The notes under the pieces: generated by a model
The model's database searches: none
Told to the model about the DNA's origin: nothing
The model's input: only the letters and a program-made list of their open reading frames with translations
Shown here: positions 6,801-43,215 of the stretch, one piece after another
How positions within the stretch are numbered: the stretch's first letter is position 1
Layout of the letters: each line of letters starts with the position of its first letter
Made by a program: the position numbers and the translations under genes
Origin: Flectonema sp. DT1601
Lineage: Eukaryota
Direction of reading: 5' to 3'
Length of the DNA: 64,000 nucleotides
NCBI GenBank assembly: GCA_964019425.1
Contig: OZ025801.1
Span: forward strand, 992,001 to 1,056,000

Positions 6801-8609
6801 CTCCTGCACTTCTTCACTTTTATGATGAAATATCAATATATGCCGCCCCAGTCGGAGCTACGGCGATGCCCGAAAAGGCATTCTATAACCCTTAGGACAC
6901 CGCTGACACAACTCAATTCCTTTTGTCTTCACTCTTGCTGTTCGATATGATGCATAACACAACCCTTTTGGTTAAAGGCAACCCCTTGATGTTACCAAAA
7001 ATAAATGTCAAACTCAACAGGTCTGACTTGAACCATCACCTCATCCTTCTCCTGCACTTCTTCACTTTTATGATGAAATATCAATATATGCCGCCCCAGT
7101 CGGAGCTACGGCGATGCCCGAAAAGGCATTCTATAACCCTTAGGACACCGCTGACACAACTCAATTCCTTTTGTCTTCACTCTTGCTGTTCGATATGATG
7201 CATAACACAACCCTTTTGGTTAAAGGCAACCCCTTGATGTTACCAAAAATAAATGTCAAACTCAACAGGTCTGACTTGAACCATCACCTCATCCTTCTCC
7301 TGCACTTCTTCACTTTTATGATGAAATATCAATATATGCCGCCCCAGTCGGAGCTACGGCGATGCCCGAAAAGGCATTCTATAACCCTTAGGACACCGCT
7401 GACACAACTCAATTCCTTTTGTCTTCACTCTTGCTGTTCGATATGATGCATAACACAACCCTTTTGGTTAAAGGCAACCCCTTGATGTTACCAAAAATAA
7501 ATGTCAAACTCAACAGGTCTGACTTGAACCAGCATCTCATCCTTCTCCTGCACCTTCATTTTTATGATGAAATATCAATATATGCCGCCCCAGTCGGAGC
7601 TACGGCGATGCCCGAAAAGGCATTCTATAACCCTTAGGACACCGCTGACACAACTCAATGCTTTTTGTCTTCACTCTTGCTGTTCGATATGATGCATAAC
7701 ACAACCCTTTTGGTTAAAGGCAACCCCTTGATGTTACCAAAAATAAATGTCAAACTCAACAGGTCTGACTTGAACCAGCATCTCATCCTTCTCCTGCACC
7801 TTCATTTTTATGATGAAATATCAATATATGCCGCCCCAGTCGGAGCTACGGCGATGCCCGAAAAGGCATTCTATAACCCTTAGGACACCGCTGACACAAC
7901 TCAATTCCTTTTGTCTTCACTCTTGCTGTTCGATATGATGCATAACACAACCCTTTTGGTTAAAGGCAACCCCTTGATGTTACCAAAAATAAATGTCAAA
8001 CTCAACAGGTCTGACTTGAACCATCACCTCATCCTTCTCCTGCACTTCTTCACTTTTATGATGAAATATCAATATATGCCGCCCCAGTCGGAGCTACGGC
8101 GATGCCCGAAAAGGCATTCTATAACCCTTAGGACACCGCTGACACAACTCAATTCATTTTGTCTTCACTCTTGCTGTTCGATATGATGCATAACACAACC
8201 CTTTTGGTTAAAGGCAACCCCTTGATGTTACCAAAAATAAATGTCAAACTCAACAGGTCTGACTTGAACCAGCATCTCATCCTTCTCCTGCACTCCTTCA
8301 TTTTTATGATGAAATATCAATATATGCCGCCCCAGTCGGAGCTACGGCGATGCCCGAAAAGGCATTCTATAACCCTTAGGACACCGCTGACACAACTCAA
8401 TTCCTTTTGTCTTCATTCTTGCTGTTCGATATGATGCATAACACAACCCTTTTGGTTAAAGGCAACCCCTTGATGTTACCAAAAATAAATGTCAAACTCA
8501 ACAGGTCTGACTTAAACCTTCATCTCATCCTTGGCTAAAGGATGTTGTAAAATTTTTGATATTTATTCGTTTGAATAAAAATATATGTCCATAGATTTTA
8601 GACAATAAA

Positions 8610-9953
8610 ATGGCAGCTGTTGGTTCTTGTGATTGCACAGCCCCGGCGATGGTTTCTGTCGGAAGATTCAAATTGTTGTGGACAGAATTAGGTTCAGAGA
8701 TAGAGAAGAATTGTAAGACTGAAGATGATCAACTGGTAGATATCGCGAAGGTTCTTGAGATGATAAAAAGTGTCCCGAATAGATTGATGGAGTGTAGTCC
8801 GGGAGCAGAAGAAAAGACACGCGAATTTGGAGTCCCAACCAAGACTGGTGTAGAAAAGTATCCAGTAGCAGTATGGGAGAAAGTAAAAGATTTTATTGAC
8901 AGCAAAGTATGGGATTTCGACGAACCCGCATTACCATCAGACAAAGATGATCCTCTTTTAAACAAGAAGCTTTCGTACGGTAATTTCATGTTGGGATTTG
9001 ATTTTCATATCACTCCAGAAGGTCCTAAACTTATCGAGGTAAACACCAATGCTGGGGGACTGGCCACTGCGTTATCAATTGGCGGATGTAACCAGTTTGA
9101 AAAAACTCTTTTGAAACAAAACTGGATTACTGCGCTGCTTGACGAATACAAATCTGCTACTGGAGCTGAACTTCCGCGTAATATGGTGATAGTCGATGAG
9201 AACCCATCTGAACAAGGGCTTTATGCAGAAATGCTTCACTTTGCAAAACTAGCAGAGTCACACATACATAAGGAGTGTAAAAGTACTTCATTTCGGTGTT
9301 TCGTTTGTGATCCTTCTGAACTGACTGTTGACAAAGAGACGAATGTGTTGAACTACACAGATGATTTCGGTACTAAGGTAGCTATTGACTTGATGTACAA
9401 CAGACTTACTGATTTTAGATTTGAGGAAGAAGCCACTCAACACATCAGGAAGGCTTGTCTTGACAACAAACTCGTAGTCACACCTCATCCAGCATCATAC
9501 GTTAGAGTTGCTGATAAAAGGTTGTTACCGTTAATGGAACACGATGTCGTACCAGCGACAATCCCTTTGTCATCTAAACCGATGGAATTTTGGGGGAAAA
9601 ATAAAAAGAAATATGTGTTTAAACCAGCATCAGGAAATGCATCAAAAGGAGTGTATCGCGGAGATAAAATCAGCGTAACAAAGTTAAAAACCCTTCCGAT
9701 GGATGAGACGCTGGCCCAGGAATTCTGTCCACCTGGTGAGTCAGATGACGGTAGTAAGTATGACCTTCGTGTGTACACAAGTGGTGATCAGATACTGGGT
9801 GTTGCTAGCCGGCAGTTTACAGGACAGGTTATGGAAATGCGTTCTGAAAATTCTGGTTTTAGAGCAGCCTTACCAGAAAACGTTTGCTGCTTCAGTGCAC
9901 TCCCGGGATTCTTCCAAAATGAGGAAGTCGCATCTCCGAATTGTTGCAAGTGA
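8610..9953 (+). CDS. ATP-grasp ligase, circularly permuted / glutathione-synthetase-like bacterial type
   Basis: 447-aa ORF with motifs GFDFH...GPKLIEVNTNAGG, DLMYNRLTDF, ADKRLL, FKPASGNASKGVYRG, AQEF, YDLRVY. The E-x-N motif lies N-terminal to the K-P/G-loop, which is the permuted order. Confidence 0.8.
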   Translation: MAAVGSCDCTAPAMVSVGRFKLLWTELGSEIEKNCKTEDDQLVDIAKVLEMIKSVPNRLMECSPGAEEKTREFGVPTKTGVEKYPVAVWEKVKDFIDSKVWDFDEPALPSDKDDPLLNKKLSYGNFMLGFDFHITPEGPKLIEVNTNAGGLATALSIGGCNQFEKTLLKQNWITALLDEYKSATGAELPRNMVIVDENPSEQGLYAEMLHFAKLAESHIHKECKSTSFRCFVCDPSELTVDKETNVLNYTDDFGTKVAIDLMYNRLTDFRFEEEATQHIRKACLDNKLVVTPHPASYVRVADKRLLPLMEHDVVPATIPLSSKPMEFWGKNKKKYVFKPASGNASKGVYRGDKISVTKLKTLPMDETLAQEFCPPGESDDGSKYDLRVYTSGDQILGVASRQFTGQVMEMRSENSGFRAALPENVCCFSALPGFFQNEEVASPNCCK

Positions 9954-12586: not shown

Positions 12587-12730
12587 TTACTGCTCTGTTA
12601 ATGATCATACTTTGCCACTGTGCAATCCAATTTCAGAACTGTTGTTTTCTGAGAGGCCAACGGAACGATAGTTTTGTAGCTGAATAAAACTTTTTCTTTT
12701 TGCATCACAGAAACAAATAGAAGTTTAAAC

Positions 12731-15100
12731 ATGGGAAGTGCTTGCTCAAGCGAACCGGCAAAGACAGAACAGAAGAAGCCAGCTAAGGAGCAGAAGAAAC
12801 CAGATGGAGGTAAACCAAAACCTGACACCAAACCTGAAAAAGAAACGAAGCCGGACAAGACGCCTGATGAGGTTAAGCCAACACCGGAACCAACACCGGA
12901 TCCAAAACCTGAAGAGGAAAAGAAACCTGAACCTAAACCTGAACCTGAAAAGGAAAAACCAGATCCAAAACCAGTAGAAGATGGAGGCAATGATTCAAAG
13001 CCAATTCCAGACACAGTTCCTGATGAGAAACCATCAACTAATGTTCCCGTGGTAGTTACTCGAACTGATATTAGAAAGATGTCATCAGATGATGTTGATC
13101 GTTTCTTTAAAGCATTTGAAAAGACGATGGAAAACAAATCTGGCCCAGGTACCAGTGAGTTCTTTCGAATTGCGTCATACCACGGAGAACCTTCTCCATA
13201 TTACTGTCAACATGGAAGGGAGACATTCCCAGGTTGGCATAGAGTCTATTTACTTGAGTTTGAGAAAGCTCTACAAGTAGCTGACAAGTCACTTGGTAAT
13301 GATGGGAATATTTCATTACCATATTGGGATTGGGGGAATCAATCTGAATTATCAAACGGATTACCTGACATCGTAAGAGAGCGTCACACGGGATGGCCAG
13401 CAGACTTTTGGCCAACAGAACTCCGAAGCAACTCGATGACTTCATCACTTCGCAGAGCTCCAAATTCAAACATAGCGAATCAACTGAGATCGTGGGAGTT
13501 ACCGGAACAAGCAAAGCAATGCATGCTAGCAACAGAACATTGGGCTTTCGCATCAACTCGTTGGCCAGGAACATACCCTTCAGTTGAAGTACCTCACAAC
13601 TCAATTCATGTTATAGTCGGTGGTAGTAGAGGTAACATGGGTAGTGTTGCTTGGGCTGCGTATGACATCGCATTCTGGCTTCATCATTGCAACGTTGATC
13701 GTCTTTACGAAGTGTACTTGGGATTAGAACCTGACTCACATGATGAGTTCAGAAACTTTCAACAAACTCAACCTCAGAATCGTTTTAATGATCAATTCGA
13801 ACCTTTCAGAAAGAGTGATGGGTCGGCATACTTCCCAACTGATACTTTCAAAACTAAAGATCTTGGATACGTTTACTCTGAGTTACCACCAGTACCAGAT
13901 ACCCAACTGTTGAGAGAAGCACCAACTGTATTGTTGTTTGCTGATGTGAATATCGCAAAGTTTGAATCGAAATGTTACCAAATTCATGTTTTTGTTGTGG
14001 ACAAAGACCAACCTTGGACAGAACTAAAAACCGAGTCGGACCTTGACTACGACAGCAAGAACTATGCTGGAGGACAAGGTGTATTTGGTAGAGGAAGTGA
14101 GTGTGATAATTGTGTGACCCGTCCACCTACTGATATCATAATCGATATTTCTGAGACAATGCGAAGACTGGGGTTAACGAGAACAACCGCATCTGCTAAG
14201 ATCTACATCGTTGAAACTACAACAGAAACTACCGACCTGTTATCTGTTGCTGACACAGAATTACCACAGCCTTTGATAACAGGACCTTTATTCGACATCC
14301 CTTCTGATGCCGTAGTCAGTAAAGAAAGTCAATTGTCTCCAGACTCTGTAAAATCACTACAACTGTTTCTAAAGAAACATGGCTACTATGAAACAGATTT
14401 AGACGGTGATTTCGGACAAAACACACACCAAGCTATTGTCGACTTCCAAGAGGCTGCCGGGATTGCAGCAGACGGTCTCGCAGGACCAATCACGAGAACC
14501 AAAATGACTAATAAAAGATGTCAAAACATCGACGGCTTTGCGAAGAATGACGTAACCGATTCGAGTTGTCGTAAGGAGAATTTCGACTACCAAAATAAGA
14601 AAGTTTTAAAGTACTTTATTAGTACTCAGCCGGGATACCTCACCAGGGATGATGCTGTTGGTGCTATTCAGAAGGCGTGTGAAAACTACAATGGAGTTGC
14701 AGGGCTGAAGTTGGAAATGACTGAAGCAAAATCCGAAGCTGACATAACTTTTTGTTGGAAAATGTTTGAGGCGAGCGGACATATTTTCAGATTTGATGGA
14801 AACGGAGGAGTACTTGGACGGGGAACTGCTGGATTGGTTGAGTTTGATGCGGCAGAGAGATGGGTAACTGGAAATGACGCCTCAAAGATATCAAACCTCC
14901 ACGATAAGAAAACATGGTTCCGTGGTATCCCTTCTATTTCTCTGTACCACACTGCTCTTCATGAACTTGGACACACTCTTGGAATGGAACATTCTTCCAA
15001 CCCATCAAACGTTATGTCTCCATTTTACAATCCTTCTTTATCAGTGTTGTCTGATGGTGATAAGGCTACCCTTGTTAAACTTTGGGGTCCTGCTGAGTAA
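12731..15100 (+). CDS. Tyrosinase + peptidoglycan-binding-like + matrixin (M10 metalloprotease) fusion protein
   Basis: 789 aa. MGSACSS acylation motif and K/P/E-rich linker. CuA (YHG...HGRETFPGWHR), LPYWDW, CuB (HNSIH...FWLHHCNVDR), CDNC. PG-binding-like LQLFLKKHGYY...DGDFG...DGLAGP. Metzincin HELGHTLGMEH with Met-turn VMSPFY. Confidence 0.92.
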   Translation: MGSACSSEPAKTEQKKPAKEQKKPDGGKPKPDTKPEKETKPDKTPDEVKPTPEPTPDPKPEEEKKPEPKPEPEKEKPDPKPVEDGGNDSKPIPDTVPDEKPSTNVPVVVTRTDIRKMSSDDVDRFFKAFEKTMENKSGPGTSEFFRIASYHGEPSPYYCQHGRETFPGWHRVYLLEFEKALQVADKSLGNDGNISLPYWDWGNQSELSNGLPDIVRERHTGWPADFWPTELRSNSMTSSLRRAPNSNIANQLRSWELPEQAKQCMLATEHWAFASTRWPGTYPSVEVPHNSIHVIVGGSRGNMGSVAWAAYDIAFWLHHCNVDRLYEVYLGLEPDSHDEFRNFQQTQPQNRFNDQFEPFRKSDGSAYFPTDTFKTKDLGYVYSELPPVPDTQLLREAPTVLLFADVNIAKFESKCYQIHVFVVDKDQPWTELKTESDLDYDSKNYAGGQGVFGRGSECDNCVTRPPTDIIIDISETMRRLGLTRTTASAKIYIVETTTETTDLLSVADTELPQPLITGPLFDIPSDAVVSKESQLSPDSVKSLQLFLKKHGYYETDLDGDFGQNTHQAIVDFQEAAGIAADGLAGPITRTKMTNKRCQNIDGFAKNDVTDSSCRKENFDYQNKKVLKYFISTQPGYLTRDDAVGAIQKACENYNGVAGLKLEMTEAKSEADITFCWKMFEASGHIFRFDGNGGVLGRGTAGLVEFDAAERWVTGNDASKISNLHDKKTWFRGIPSISLYHTALHELGHTLGMEHSSNPSNVMSPFYNPSLSVLSDGDKATLVKLWGPAE

Positions 15101-34810: not shown

Positions 34811-35214
34811 CTAAGTAACACATCAATTCCAATTTCATTTCGTACTTTAAATGAATTGATCTCAGATTGCAAACTCAAACTATCTACGTAGTCACCTCAT
34901 TAGCAGTCCATTAAACATTTCTTTTTTTATGATTCTTACATTGCCTTCCTAACCACCTCATTGCTTCTTCAGTTTCTGTTATGCGGTTGAGACTTTTCTT
35001 ATTGATATTCACATTCTAATTTAATTATTATCAACTTCAGATATGTACAAATGGTTTCGACAAATACTTTTATATCTCTTCGCTCCATTGAAGTTAACGT
35101 TTCGCAGTTCACGTGCTGAAATAGAATGATGTCACAACTTTTTATATCTTGTTTAGTTCAATATTTCATAACACTTATATATCAAATTCCCCCCTGCTCA
35201 GATCATTTGCCAAA

Positions 35215-35844
35215 ATGGTTTCGCTTAAGGTGCAAAAGAGGCTCTCCGCCAAGGTCCTGAAGTGTGGTAAGGGACGTGTTTGGCTTGACCCTAACGAGAC
35301 GTCCGACATCGTCCAGGCGAACTCCAGACGTCAGATCGAGAAGCTCGTAAAGGATGGTTACATCATCCGTCGCCCAAAGAACAGCATCTCCAGATTCAGA
35401 TGGAGAAAGGTTCTCGTGGCAAAGAGAAAGGGACGTCACAACGGACAGGGTAAGCGTAAGGGAGCTTCCGAGGCTCGTATGCCAACCAAGGAACTCTGGG
35501 TAAGACGTATTCGTGTCCTCAGAAGATTGTTGAAGAAGTTCCGTGAGGCCAAGAAGATCGACAAGTACGCCTACCACAAGATGTACTTGGAGTGCAAGGG
35601 TAACGTTTACAAGAACAAGAGAACCCTTATGGAGCACATCCACAAGGAGAAGGGTATCAGAGCCAGAGAGAAGGAGCTCCAGGACCAGCTTGAGGCCAAG
35701 AAGATGAAGTCGATCGCCAAGCGTGAGAAGCTCGCGAAGAAGGAGACCAAGCGTCGTGAGAAGGAGAGAGCCGAGCGTGGATCAACCACCACCAAGAAGG
35801 CTGACACCAAGAAGACTGACTCCAAGAAGAAGTCAAAGAAGTAA
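35215..35844 (+). CDS. RPL19: 60S ribosomal protein eL19, copy 1
   Basis: [28 protein letters not shown]...GKRKG...LRRLLKK...KGNVYKNKR. The true ATG is at 35215 by comparison with the other copies. Confidence 0.98.
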
Positions 35845-39995: not shown

Positions 39996-40625
39996 ATGGT
40001 TTCGCTTAAGGTGCAAAAGAGGCTCTCCGCCAAGGTCCTGAAGTGTGGTAAGGGACGTGTTTGGCTTGACCCTAACGAGACGTCCGACATCGTCCAGGCG
40101 AACTCCAGACGTCAGATCGAGAAGCTCGTTAAGGATGGTTACATCATCCGTCGCCCAAAGAACAGCATCTCCAGATTCAGATGGAGAAAGGTTCTCGTGG
40201 CAAAGAGAAAGGGACGTCACAACGGACAGGGTAAGCGTAAGGGAGCTTCCGAGGCTCGTATGCCAACCAAGGAACTCTGGGTAAGACGTATTCGTGTCCT
40301 CAGAAGATTGTTGAAGAAGTTCCGTGAGGCCAAGAAGATCGACAAGTACGCCTACCACAAGATGTACTTGGAGTGCAAGGGTAACGTCTACAAGAACAAG
40401 AGAACCCTTATGGAGCACATCCACAAGGAGAAGGGTATCAGAGCCAGAGAGAAGGAGCTCCAGGACCAGCTTGAGGCCAAGAAGATGAAGTCGATCGCCA
40501 AGCGTGAGAAGCTCGCGAAGAAGGAGACCAAGCGTCGTGAGAAGGAGAGAGCCGAGCGTGGATCAACCACCACCAAGAAGGCTGACACCAAGAAGACTGA
40601 TTCTAAGAAGAAGTCAAAGAAGTAA
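39996..40625 (+). CDS. RPL19: 60S ribosomal protein eL19, copy 2
   Basis: Identical 209-aa protein. Confidence 0.98.
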
Positions 40626-41437: not shown

Positions 41438-42067
41438 ATGGTTTCGCTTAAGGTGCAAAAGAGGCTCTCCGCCAAGGTCCTGAAGTGTGGTAAGGGACGT
41501 GTTTGGCTTGACCCTAACGAGACGTCCGACATCGTCCAGGCGAACTCCAGACGTCAGATCGAGAAGCTCGTTAAGGATGGTTACATCATCCGTCGCCCAA
41601 AGAACAGCATCTCCAGATTCAGATGGAGAAAGGTTCTCGTGGCAAAGAGAAAGGGACGTCACAACGGACAGGGTAAGCGTAAGGGAGCTTCCGAGGCTCG
41701 TATGCCAACCAAGGAACTTTGGGTAAGACGTATTCGTGTCCTCAGAAGATTGTTGAAGAAGTTCCGTGAGGCCAAGAAGATCGACAAGTACGCCTACCAC
41801 AAGATGTACTTGGAGTGCAAGGGTAACGTTTACAAGAACAAGAGAACCCTTATGGAGCACATCCACAAGGAGAAGGGTATCAGAGCCAGAGAGAAGGAGC
41901 TCCAGGACCAGCTTGAGGCCAAGAAGATGAAGTCGATCGCCAAGCGTGAGAAGCTCGCGAAGAAGGAGACCAAGCGTCGTGAGAAGGAGAGAGCCGAGCG
42001 TGGATCAACCACCACCAAGAAGGCTGACACCAAGAAGACTGACTCCAAGAAGAAGTCAAAGAAGTAA
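41438..42067 (+). CDS. RPL19: 60S ribosomal protein eL19, copy 3
   Basis: Identical 209-aa protein. Confidence 0.98.
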
Positions 42068-42585: not shown

Positions 42586-43215
42586 ATGGTTTCGCTTAAG
42601 GTGCAAAAGAGGCTCTCCGCCAAGGTCCTGAAGTGTGGTAAGGGACGTGTTTGGCTTGACCCTAACGAGACGTCCGACATCGTCCAGGCGAACTCCAGAC
42701 GTCAGATCGAGAAGCTCGTAAAGGATGGTTACATCATCCGTCGCCCAAAGAACAGCATCTCCAGATTCAGATGGAGAAAGGTTCTCGTGGCAAAGAGAAA
42801 GGGACGTCACAACGGACAGGGTAAGCGTAAGGGAGCTTCCGAGGCTCGTATGCCGACCAAGGAACTCTGGGTAAGACGTATTCGTGTCCTCAGAAGATTG
42901 TTGAAGAAGTTCCGTGAGGCCAAGAAGATCGACAAGTACGCCTACCACAAGATGTACTTGGAGTGCAAGGGTAACGTCTACAAGAACAAGAGAACCCTTA
43001 TGGAGCACATCCACAAGGAGAAGGGTATCAGAGCCAGAGAGAAGGAGCTCCAGGACCAGCTTGAGGCCAAGAAGATGAAGTCGATCGCCAAGCGTGAGAA
43101 GCTCGCGAAGAAGGAGACCAAGCGTCGTGAGAAGGAGAGAGCCGAGCGTGGATCAACCACCACCAAGAAGGCTGACACCAAGAAGACTGACTCCAAGAAG
43201 AAGTCAAAGAAGTAA
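42586..43215 (+). CDS. RPL19: 60S ribosomal protein eL19, copy 4
   Basis: Identical 209-aa protein. Confidence 0.98.

Follow-up and report, generated by a model that had tools for sequence, protein, structure and literature searches.

A tyrosinase fused to an MMP-like pro-protease in Flectonema sp. DT1601 and other single-celled eukaryotes, a possible self-activating phenoloxidase

The window analyzed in this study, a stretch of 64,000 nucleotides from Flectonema sp. DT1601, was found to be eukaryotic DNA carrying long intron-free open reading frames (ORFs) on its forward strand. As summarized in Table 1, one of these ORFs encodes a tyrosinase followed on the same chain by a pro-protease of the matrix metalloproteinase (MMP) kind. 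A Pfam search with the 789-aa product returned three matches above the cut-off, namely Tyrosinase (residues 142-329, E 3.6e-33), PG_binding_1 (538-592, E 2.2e-13), and Peptidase_M10 (622-785, E 1.8e-22). The four-part fusion described in the first-pass annotation of this DNA was thus borne out by a single stop-free frame in which both the Pfam domains and the catalytic motifs were found, the motifs CDNC, KRCQNID, and HELGHTLGMEH lying at 14102, 14513, and 14960, where it had placed them, and the Met-turn within VMSPFY at 15011. No paralog of the tyrosinase-protease gene was detected within the window.

Table 1. Features of the tyrosinase-protease gene, in window coordinates
Feature	Position	Strand	Content and basis
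Pyrimidine tract leading to CAG, 20 nt 5' of the ATG	12690..12710	+	Sequence; putative splice-leader acceptor
Whole ORF (P0001)	12731..15100	+	789 aa, no internal stops; tyrosinase, shield, prodomain, and M10-like protease
N-terminal MGSACS	12731..12748	+	Predicted myristoylation at Gly2, Cys close by
Low-complexity spacer rich in Pro/Lys/Glu, residues 7-104	12749..13042	+	Composition
Tyrosinase core	13043..13876	+	Pfam, motifs, structural alignment
Core-to-shield linker, residues 383-397 (...TQLLREA)	13877..13921	+	VIA end of mature enzymes; family conservation; pLDDT
C-terminal shield domain	13922..14296	+	hhalign, VIA; CxxC 458-461 at 14102-14113
Three-helix MMP-type prodomain (Pfam PG_binding_1)	14342..14533	+	Ends in KRCQNID; C597 at 14519-14521
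M10-like catalytic domain	14594..15085	+	HELGHTLGMEH (14960-14992; residues 744-754), Met-turn M762

The tract upstream of the start codon is probably a splice-leader acceptor, and comparable pyrimidine tracts precede several further ORFs in the window; since an equally pyrimidine-rich 16-mer occurs within the ORF at 14928, the tract by itself constitutes weak evidence. A simple hydropathy scan of the first 35 residues detected no hydrophobic stretch of the signal-peptide kind (hydropathy around 0), and the spacer of residues 7-104 probably serves, judging from its composition, as a flexible tether. Elsewhere in the window, an ORF of 447 aa that weakly matches ATP-grasp (8610-9953, E 0.0085) lies two genes upstream of the tyrosinase-protease ORF. 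The ORFs at 35149-35844 and 39996-40625 match ribosomal protein L19e, and two further ORFs of 209 aa, at 41438-42067 and 42586-43215, are of the same length as the L19e-matching ones; the four probably form a tandem array.

In the tyrosinase core, all six copper-binding His residues are present (CuA, H151/H161/H170; CuB, H289/H293/H319), together with the waterkeeper E286, N290, and a YxY motif at residues 380-382. C159 occupies the thioether position, preceding the second CuA His by two residues (C159-Q-H161), and a Cys is found at this position in 99 of 108 family members. In the available text of PMC11803259, the waterkeeper Glu and the Asn corresponding to E286 and N290 are tied to monophenolase activity. 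An AlphaFold2 model of residues 105-789 reached a pLDDT of 94.0 and a pTM of 0.92, the latter suggesting a defined packing of the predicted domains. When compared by VIA, the tyrosinase half of the model aligned with hemocyanin unit 1js8 (Z 34.1, rmsd 3.2, 346 aligned), and residues 105-519 aligned with the melB pro-tyrosinase 6jub (Z 28.2, rmsd 3.3, 383 aligned).

The domain behind the core had been described as fungal-like, and an hhalign comparison of the family with 13 fungal long tyrosinases agreed with this, giving a probability of 100 through the YxY and CxxC motifs. Pfam Tyrosinase_C (PF18132) gave no match in the 789-aa protein and weak matches in 7 of 41 family members (best E 2.6e-4), while a search of PDB sequences with the shield domain alone returned nothing but chance antibody matches. 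Every one of the 97 members whose copper site is intact or nearly so kept the CxxC motif, as did 2 of the 10 whose site has decayed. The shield CxxC of melB reportedly has a role in copper loading, and the retention of the motif along with the copper site, and its loss in eight of the ten decayed members, would by analogy fit such a role. Within the shield, F452 is the probable active-site plug. The linker joining core and shield forms the block of lowest pLDDT in the tyrosinase half (82), and mature melB and AbPPO3 were aligned by VIA with the model only through its residue 286, which is residue 390 of the protein, so that the maturation cut would fall within the linker; a putative cut site is proposed just before the conserved Leu394 (13910-13912).

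The profile of the protease half matched proMMP-1 continuously (1su3_A 6-243, E 3.1e-28) and aligned KRCQNID (krcanvd in the family) onto PRCGVPD with R, C, and D in register. The first-pass annotation had noted a lone Cys at the position of the cysteine switch; the register was corroborated, while the word "lone" could not be kept, as C613, C651, and C676 share that half. The HExxHxxGxxH motif and Met-turn were indeed intact (Table 1). Acidic residues D689, D706, and E709 stand at the MMP calcium site, D706 being conserved in 106 and E709 in 98 of 108 members. A Foldseek search with the protease half modeled alone (residues 521-789) placed proMMP zymogens at all of the top 14 ranks shown, the best matches being proMMP-3, -9, -10, -1, and -7, with an E of 1.2e-14 and a TM of 0.79 by target against 1slm. 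Residues 542-789 were aligned by VIA with 1slm (proMMP-3) at Z 22.9 (rmsd 2.4, 210 aligned), and the ESM Atlas gave scores of only 0.75 for the MMP half. The AlphaFold modeling proposed earlier thus superposed the protein on a latent fungal tyrosinase and on proMMP-3, in line with the earlier view that both halves are latent.

The structural zinc site of MMPs is formed by His-x-Asp, AHA, and HFD ligands. In the present protein the corresponding positions read LGRG and VEFD, and LAH and HFD motifs were found to co-occur in just 1 of 108 members; owing to the absence of these ligands, the protease was classified as MMP-like rather than as a canonical matrixin. Of the 108 members, 66 have Asp and 17 have Cys in the switch column, the motifs being RxDxxxD in 43, RCxxxD in 21, RxD in 9, and other forms in 26, with the prodomain undetected in 9. 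The Cys or Asp label changes just two to three times on the tree, and it showed no significant association with protease intactness (p 0.06). A literature search found no description of an Asp switch in a three-helix prodomain. When stand-alone pro-M10 relatives (147-471 aa) were sought, one same-family fragment was recovered; with only 1111 candidates scored, the search was a weak one.

To delineate the family, 287 proteins were gathered by two word-based searches, one HMMER search of cluster representatives, and cluster look-ups, and family-built profiles located tyrosinase, shield, and M10 in a single chain in 145 of them. The 115 well-covered members were reduced to 108 at 90% identity, and P0010, which looks chimeric, was dropped for most counts (n=107). 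The closest named relative, from the diplonemid Flectonema neradi, shares 73% identity. Besides Flectonema, the diplonemids contribute a Diplonema papillatum genome protein (KAJ9451471, labeled "Polyphenol oxidase 2"), and further members occur in the euglenid Ploeotia, the foraminifera Rosalina, Bolivina, and Nonionella, the dinoflagellates Gymnodinium, Biecheleria, and Durusdinium, Aureococcus, and the chlorophytes Chlamydomonas schloesseri, Gonium, Volvox, Edaphochlamys, Astrephomene, and Ostreobium. The fusion family is therefore widespread among unrelated single-celled eukaryotes, and the database labels of its members cover one half only. Relatives such as those of Flectonema are single transcript ORFs, complete according to their source labels.

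An assembly error, or two genes read as one, deserves next to no weight as an account of the locus and is already largely refuted: in the source organism the fusion is known here from genomic sequence alone, but it occupies one open frame, and the same domain order recurs in the 145 of 287 proteins, which derive from genomes, transcriptomes, and metagenomes and include KAJ9451471. The fusion was thus confirmed as real. Trees of the two halves shared 28 of 50 strong splits and conflicted in 17, a partial disagreement that may reflect noise or recombination, and in a FastTree phylogeny the foraminiferan and diplonemid copies clustered, which hints at gene transfer. Five full-length copies (P0193, P0197, P0198, P0218, and P0253) have a decayed copper site and a Glu-to-Ala change with the three zinc His residues kept; these pseudo-enzymes are possibly retained as regulators or scaffolds.

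Matrixins are typically secreted by means of a signal peptide. In the present family a signal-peptide-like stretch was observed in only 7 of 108 members, and 27 of the 70 members having an N-terminal extension start with MG. A Cys was found at position -4 in 13 of 107 members, as against 0-3 at adjacent positions, and profiles built from Pfam-labeled members detected a C2-like region in 16 members and an EF-hand in 5. From these features and the predicted lipid modifications, we infer that the protein is cytosolic, membrane-tethered, and calcium-linked. One member, P0028, carries an extra peroxidase domain in addition to a C2-like region, so that two oxidizing enzymes are joined to the protease.

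Compared with known systems, the tyrosinase half shares with the fungal long pro-tyrosinases (melB 3w6q/6jub and AbPPO4 4oua; type l in the available text of PMC11803259) the six-His core, the CuA Cys, the waterkeeper Glu, the Asn controller, the YxY motif, and a homologous shield domain with CxxC. It differs from them in the pro-protease behind the shield and in a much shorter core-shield linker, and its first two CuA His residues are 9 residues apart (H151-H161), as against 16-24 in types g-l as given in the same source. In a quick tree of the core, 31 of 35 fused rows formed a group of their own (SH-aLRT 93) beside fungal long PPOs and hemocyanins, and the nine fungal rows made up a clade with a value of 99 that excluded the fused rows. 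The short CuA spacing and the separate group indicate that the protein, despite its type-2 marks, is not a member of type l. The best structural matches of core plus shield were molluscan hemocyanin units and Burkholderia BtTYR (types j and k; VIA Z 30-34), from which the present protein is distinguished by its single unit, the fused protease, and the predicted lipid anchor.

The protease half resembles minimal proMMPs (proMMP-7, C-truncated proMMP-3 1slm, and proMMP-1 1su3; MEROPS M10A) in its three-helix prodomain at the zymogen position, a putative R-C-x3-D switch, HExxHxxGxxH, the Met-turn, and the acidic calcium-site residues. Unlike these proteins, it has neither a signal peptide nor the structural-zinc His, a tyrosinase stands N-terminal to its prodomain, and most relatives replace the Cys switch by R-x-D-x3-D. 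In prokarilysin, proastacin, and promeprin beta, the zinc has an Asp as its fourth ligand, as stated in the accessible part of PMC6949598, and the Asp-type relatives resemble these aspartate-switch zymogens in that their Asp is predicted to be a zinc ligand. The pro-segments of the latter, however, are 14-44 residues long, whereas in the family the Asp stands in the Cys register of a full three-helix prodomain. A latent phenoloxidase is opened by severing its cap from its core in apple MdPPO1 and in the insect prophenoloxidase cascade (PMC6563526, available text), as is proposed here; yet MdPPO1 carries no protease domain, and in insects the serine proteases are separate proteins and the copper family is a different one. 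According to the same text, the apple enzyme cleaves itself without a protease and is still latent after the cut.

We then compared the state of the two active sites among the 107 members: both were intact in 89, both dead in 10, the protease alone dead in 7, and the copper site alone altered in 1, the last through one His-to-Tyr change. Of the 11 members whose copper site is damaged, 10 have thus also lost the catalytic Glu, an association with a Fisher p of 6e-9 that, like the uncorrected p values for the linker given below, ignores kinship and overstates the case. The losses of the two sites correspond to 9 and 14 separate changes on the tree. In independent pairs, drawn from a tree inferred with the trait columns left out (4-7 pairs), copper loss went with Glu loss in the same direction in 5.3 of 7 and in the opposite direction in none (median p 0.06, not significant). 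The asymmetry of one copper-only against seven protease-only losses had a p of 0.07. This pattern indicates that an intact protease is hardly ever retained without a working oxidase, and the seven members that keep the copper site without the protease indicate that the latter is dispensable in some lineages. As read from the sequences, the coupled loss shows a shared function of the two halves and does not give its direction.

The linker was 13-20 residues long in all 89 doubly intact members, 83 of which had Leu, Met, or Ile at a constant position in it, while the seven protease-dead, copper-intact members had linkers of 68, 29, 16, 43, 15, 18, and 28 residues. Normal length and the hydrophobic residue were retained together by 80 of the 89 doubly intact members and by 33 of 37 intact controls of equal divergence, as against 2 of the 7 protease-dead members (p 6e-4 for the first contrast and 0.002 for the controls); this post hoc comparison was devised from the alignment and depends on seven sequences, some of them unverified gene models. 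The mean column conservation of the tyrosinase half was barely lower in the protease-dead members (0.71 vs 0.77). In independent pairs, linker relaxation among copper-intact members was seen in 2.6 of 4 (p 0.25, not significant). The linker motif was absent in the six protease-less giant-virus relatives inspected. MMP-2 prefers Leu at P1' according to the available text of PMC2871423; the conserved hydrophobic residue could also be a packing contact. An MMP cleavage motif with Pro at P3 was considered and rejected, since it occurred in 38 of 107 linkers against 39 in shuffles and was absent from the 789-aa protein.

The single chain thus carries two predicted zymogens, and we consider it reasonably likely that the protease activates the tyrosinase by cutting the core-shield linker; the coupled loss of the two sites and the protease-dependent constraint on the linker lend indirect support and favor such a release. 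In the proposed mechanism, a lipid anchor or C2 domain would hold the protein at the cytosolic face of a membrane, and a trigger at the damaged membrane, most likely a rise in calcium or oxidation, would displace the switch residue, Cys or Asp, from the zinc. The protease would then cut near Q-L394-R, in the same chain or a neighboring copy, and the freed copper core would make quinones by which nearby material is cross-linked or tanned. The trigger and the quinone tanning are the weakest of these steps; wound sealing is the most economical guess at the purpose, and encystment and defense are likewise guesses. The fuller picture, a prophenoloxidase cascade in one polypeptide across protists, in which calcium at a damaged membrane sets off an anchored cytosolic MMP-like zymogen with a Cys/Asp switch and no structural zinc, which cuts its linker in cis and lets the tyrosinase seal or tan the wound, is offered tentatively and is doubtful as a whole.

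Three other readings of the fusion were weighed against linker cutting. The two enzymes might act side by side, the protease cutting an outside structural protein that a tyrosinase activated by other means then cross-links; this would account for the coupled loss equally well, and other proteases, self-cleavage, or detergent activate PPOs in the available texts of PMC6563526 and PMC9454253. Such an arrangement, however, predicts neither the relaxation of the linker upon death of the protease alone nor the near-absence (one case) of an intact protease without a copper site, and it appears unlikely. MMP cysteine switches are sensitive to oxidants, and the order could then be reversed, with quinones from the oxidase modifying the switch Cys and turning on the protease as the real effector; the title of one paper concerns MMP9 and HOCl. 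The Cys-form switch of the present protein suits this order, but Asp, which is not oxidizable in this way, prevails over Cys at the switch position in the family, the oxidase is itself shielded, and more members have lost the protease alone than the oxidase alone (7 vs 1). We regard the reversed order as very improbable.

The protease half might instead serve chiefly as a folded lid that senses metal and opens the shield with no cleavage, a reading consistent with the prediction of the four domains as one packed body (pTM 0.92) and with several dead members that retain the three zinc His residues and have only the Glu changed, to Ala, Gln, or Ile. Against it, 90 of 107 members have preserved the catalytic Glu, and where this residue is gone other features tend to have decayed as well; there is little chance that the half is mainly a lid.

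The first-pass annotation regarded the architecture as uncharacterized, and our literature search agreed: no description of the fusion was found in the literature searched, although figures and most subscription papers were not covered and a passing mention may exist. The available portions of PMC3658974, PMC8517187, PMC10952624, and PMC6313938 contained no description of it, and the text and four supplementary files of PMC11803259 mention no peptidase domain, though the cartoons of its Figure 2 may draw one for Chlamydomonas. The accessible text of that work (Meitil et al. 2025) assigns chlorophyte PPOs to type l or leaves them unclassified, and in that of PMC10541563 they are said to have a tyrosinase domain only. 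Both parts of the fusion are of known kinds, and it is the combination that is undescribed within the literature searched. Beyond the earlier reading, the present analysis adds a widespread family with a mostly Asp-type switch and without structural-zinc ligands or signal peptide; judging from its lipid-anchor motifs and its C2 and EF-hand domains, the enzyme would be cytosolic, bound to a membrane, and linked to calcium.

The in-cell switching-on of latent polyphenol oxidases is largely unknown outside insects, as stated in the available text of PMC6563526. If self-activation is true, a built-in activator would be named for enzymes whose natural activators are mostly unknown, and since a candidate activator and a candidate cut site lie in one chain, a single point mutant would test PPO activation; the gene is present in Chlamydomonas, Volvox, and Diplonema species. 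The family appears to hold a cytosolic MMP-fold protease without structural zinc and with a Cys/Asp swap, which would widen knowledge of MMP latency and origin, and the fusion points to an unrecognized tanning or sealing response in single-celled eukaryotes.

Relatives were also observed outside cellular eukaryotes. A divergent fused copy (L001:855-3005) adjoins a sulfatase on a metagenome contig of 22% GC that is probably a giant virus. Its tyrosinase grouped, with a value of 99, with those of five giant-virus-type contigs, four of them labeled GVMAG, which have the shield and no protease in the ORF; this suggests a viral branch in which the protease may have been lost later. Related tyrosinase-plus-shield genes without the protease occur on seven viral contigs (L003-L009), five of which are labeled GVMAG. 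A viral scan with P0087 gave no match. On another viral contig, of 52% GC, a tyrosinase gene and a separate matrixin-like gene lie on opposite strands some 1.8 kb apart (L012:4680-6176 and 7937-8548).

Among the best 80 of at least 562 prokaryotic tyrosinase loci, no single-chain fusion was found. At one of these 80, in a Cyclobacteriaceae genome (L041:3929-6577), the gene for a lipoprotein-like, shielded tyrosinase of a different type, carrying DWL/DUF7868 domains, is preceded at a distance of 21 nt by a canonical pro-MMP gene, whose product has a PRCGLPE switch, a PPC domain, and the structural-zinc motifs. In 401 genomes of the same order, the protease query gave three matches and the tyrosinase query five, both together only in this genome. 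The pairing of the separate genes speaks for a protease that serves a shielded tyrosinase, and its failure to recur beyond this single case speaks against it. In a Mumia ORF (L070:3092-5239), a PG_binding_1 domain stands N-terminal to the tyrosinase, and a Brevundimonas tyrosinase gene (L033:5038-5976) is followed by a weak metzincin-like ORF.
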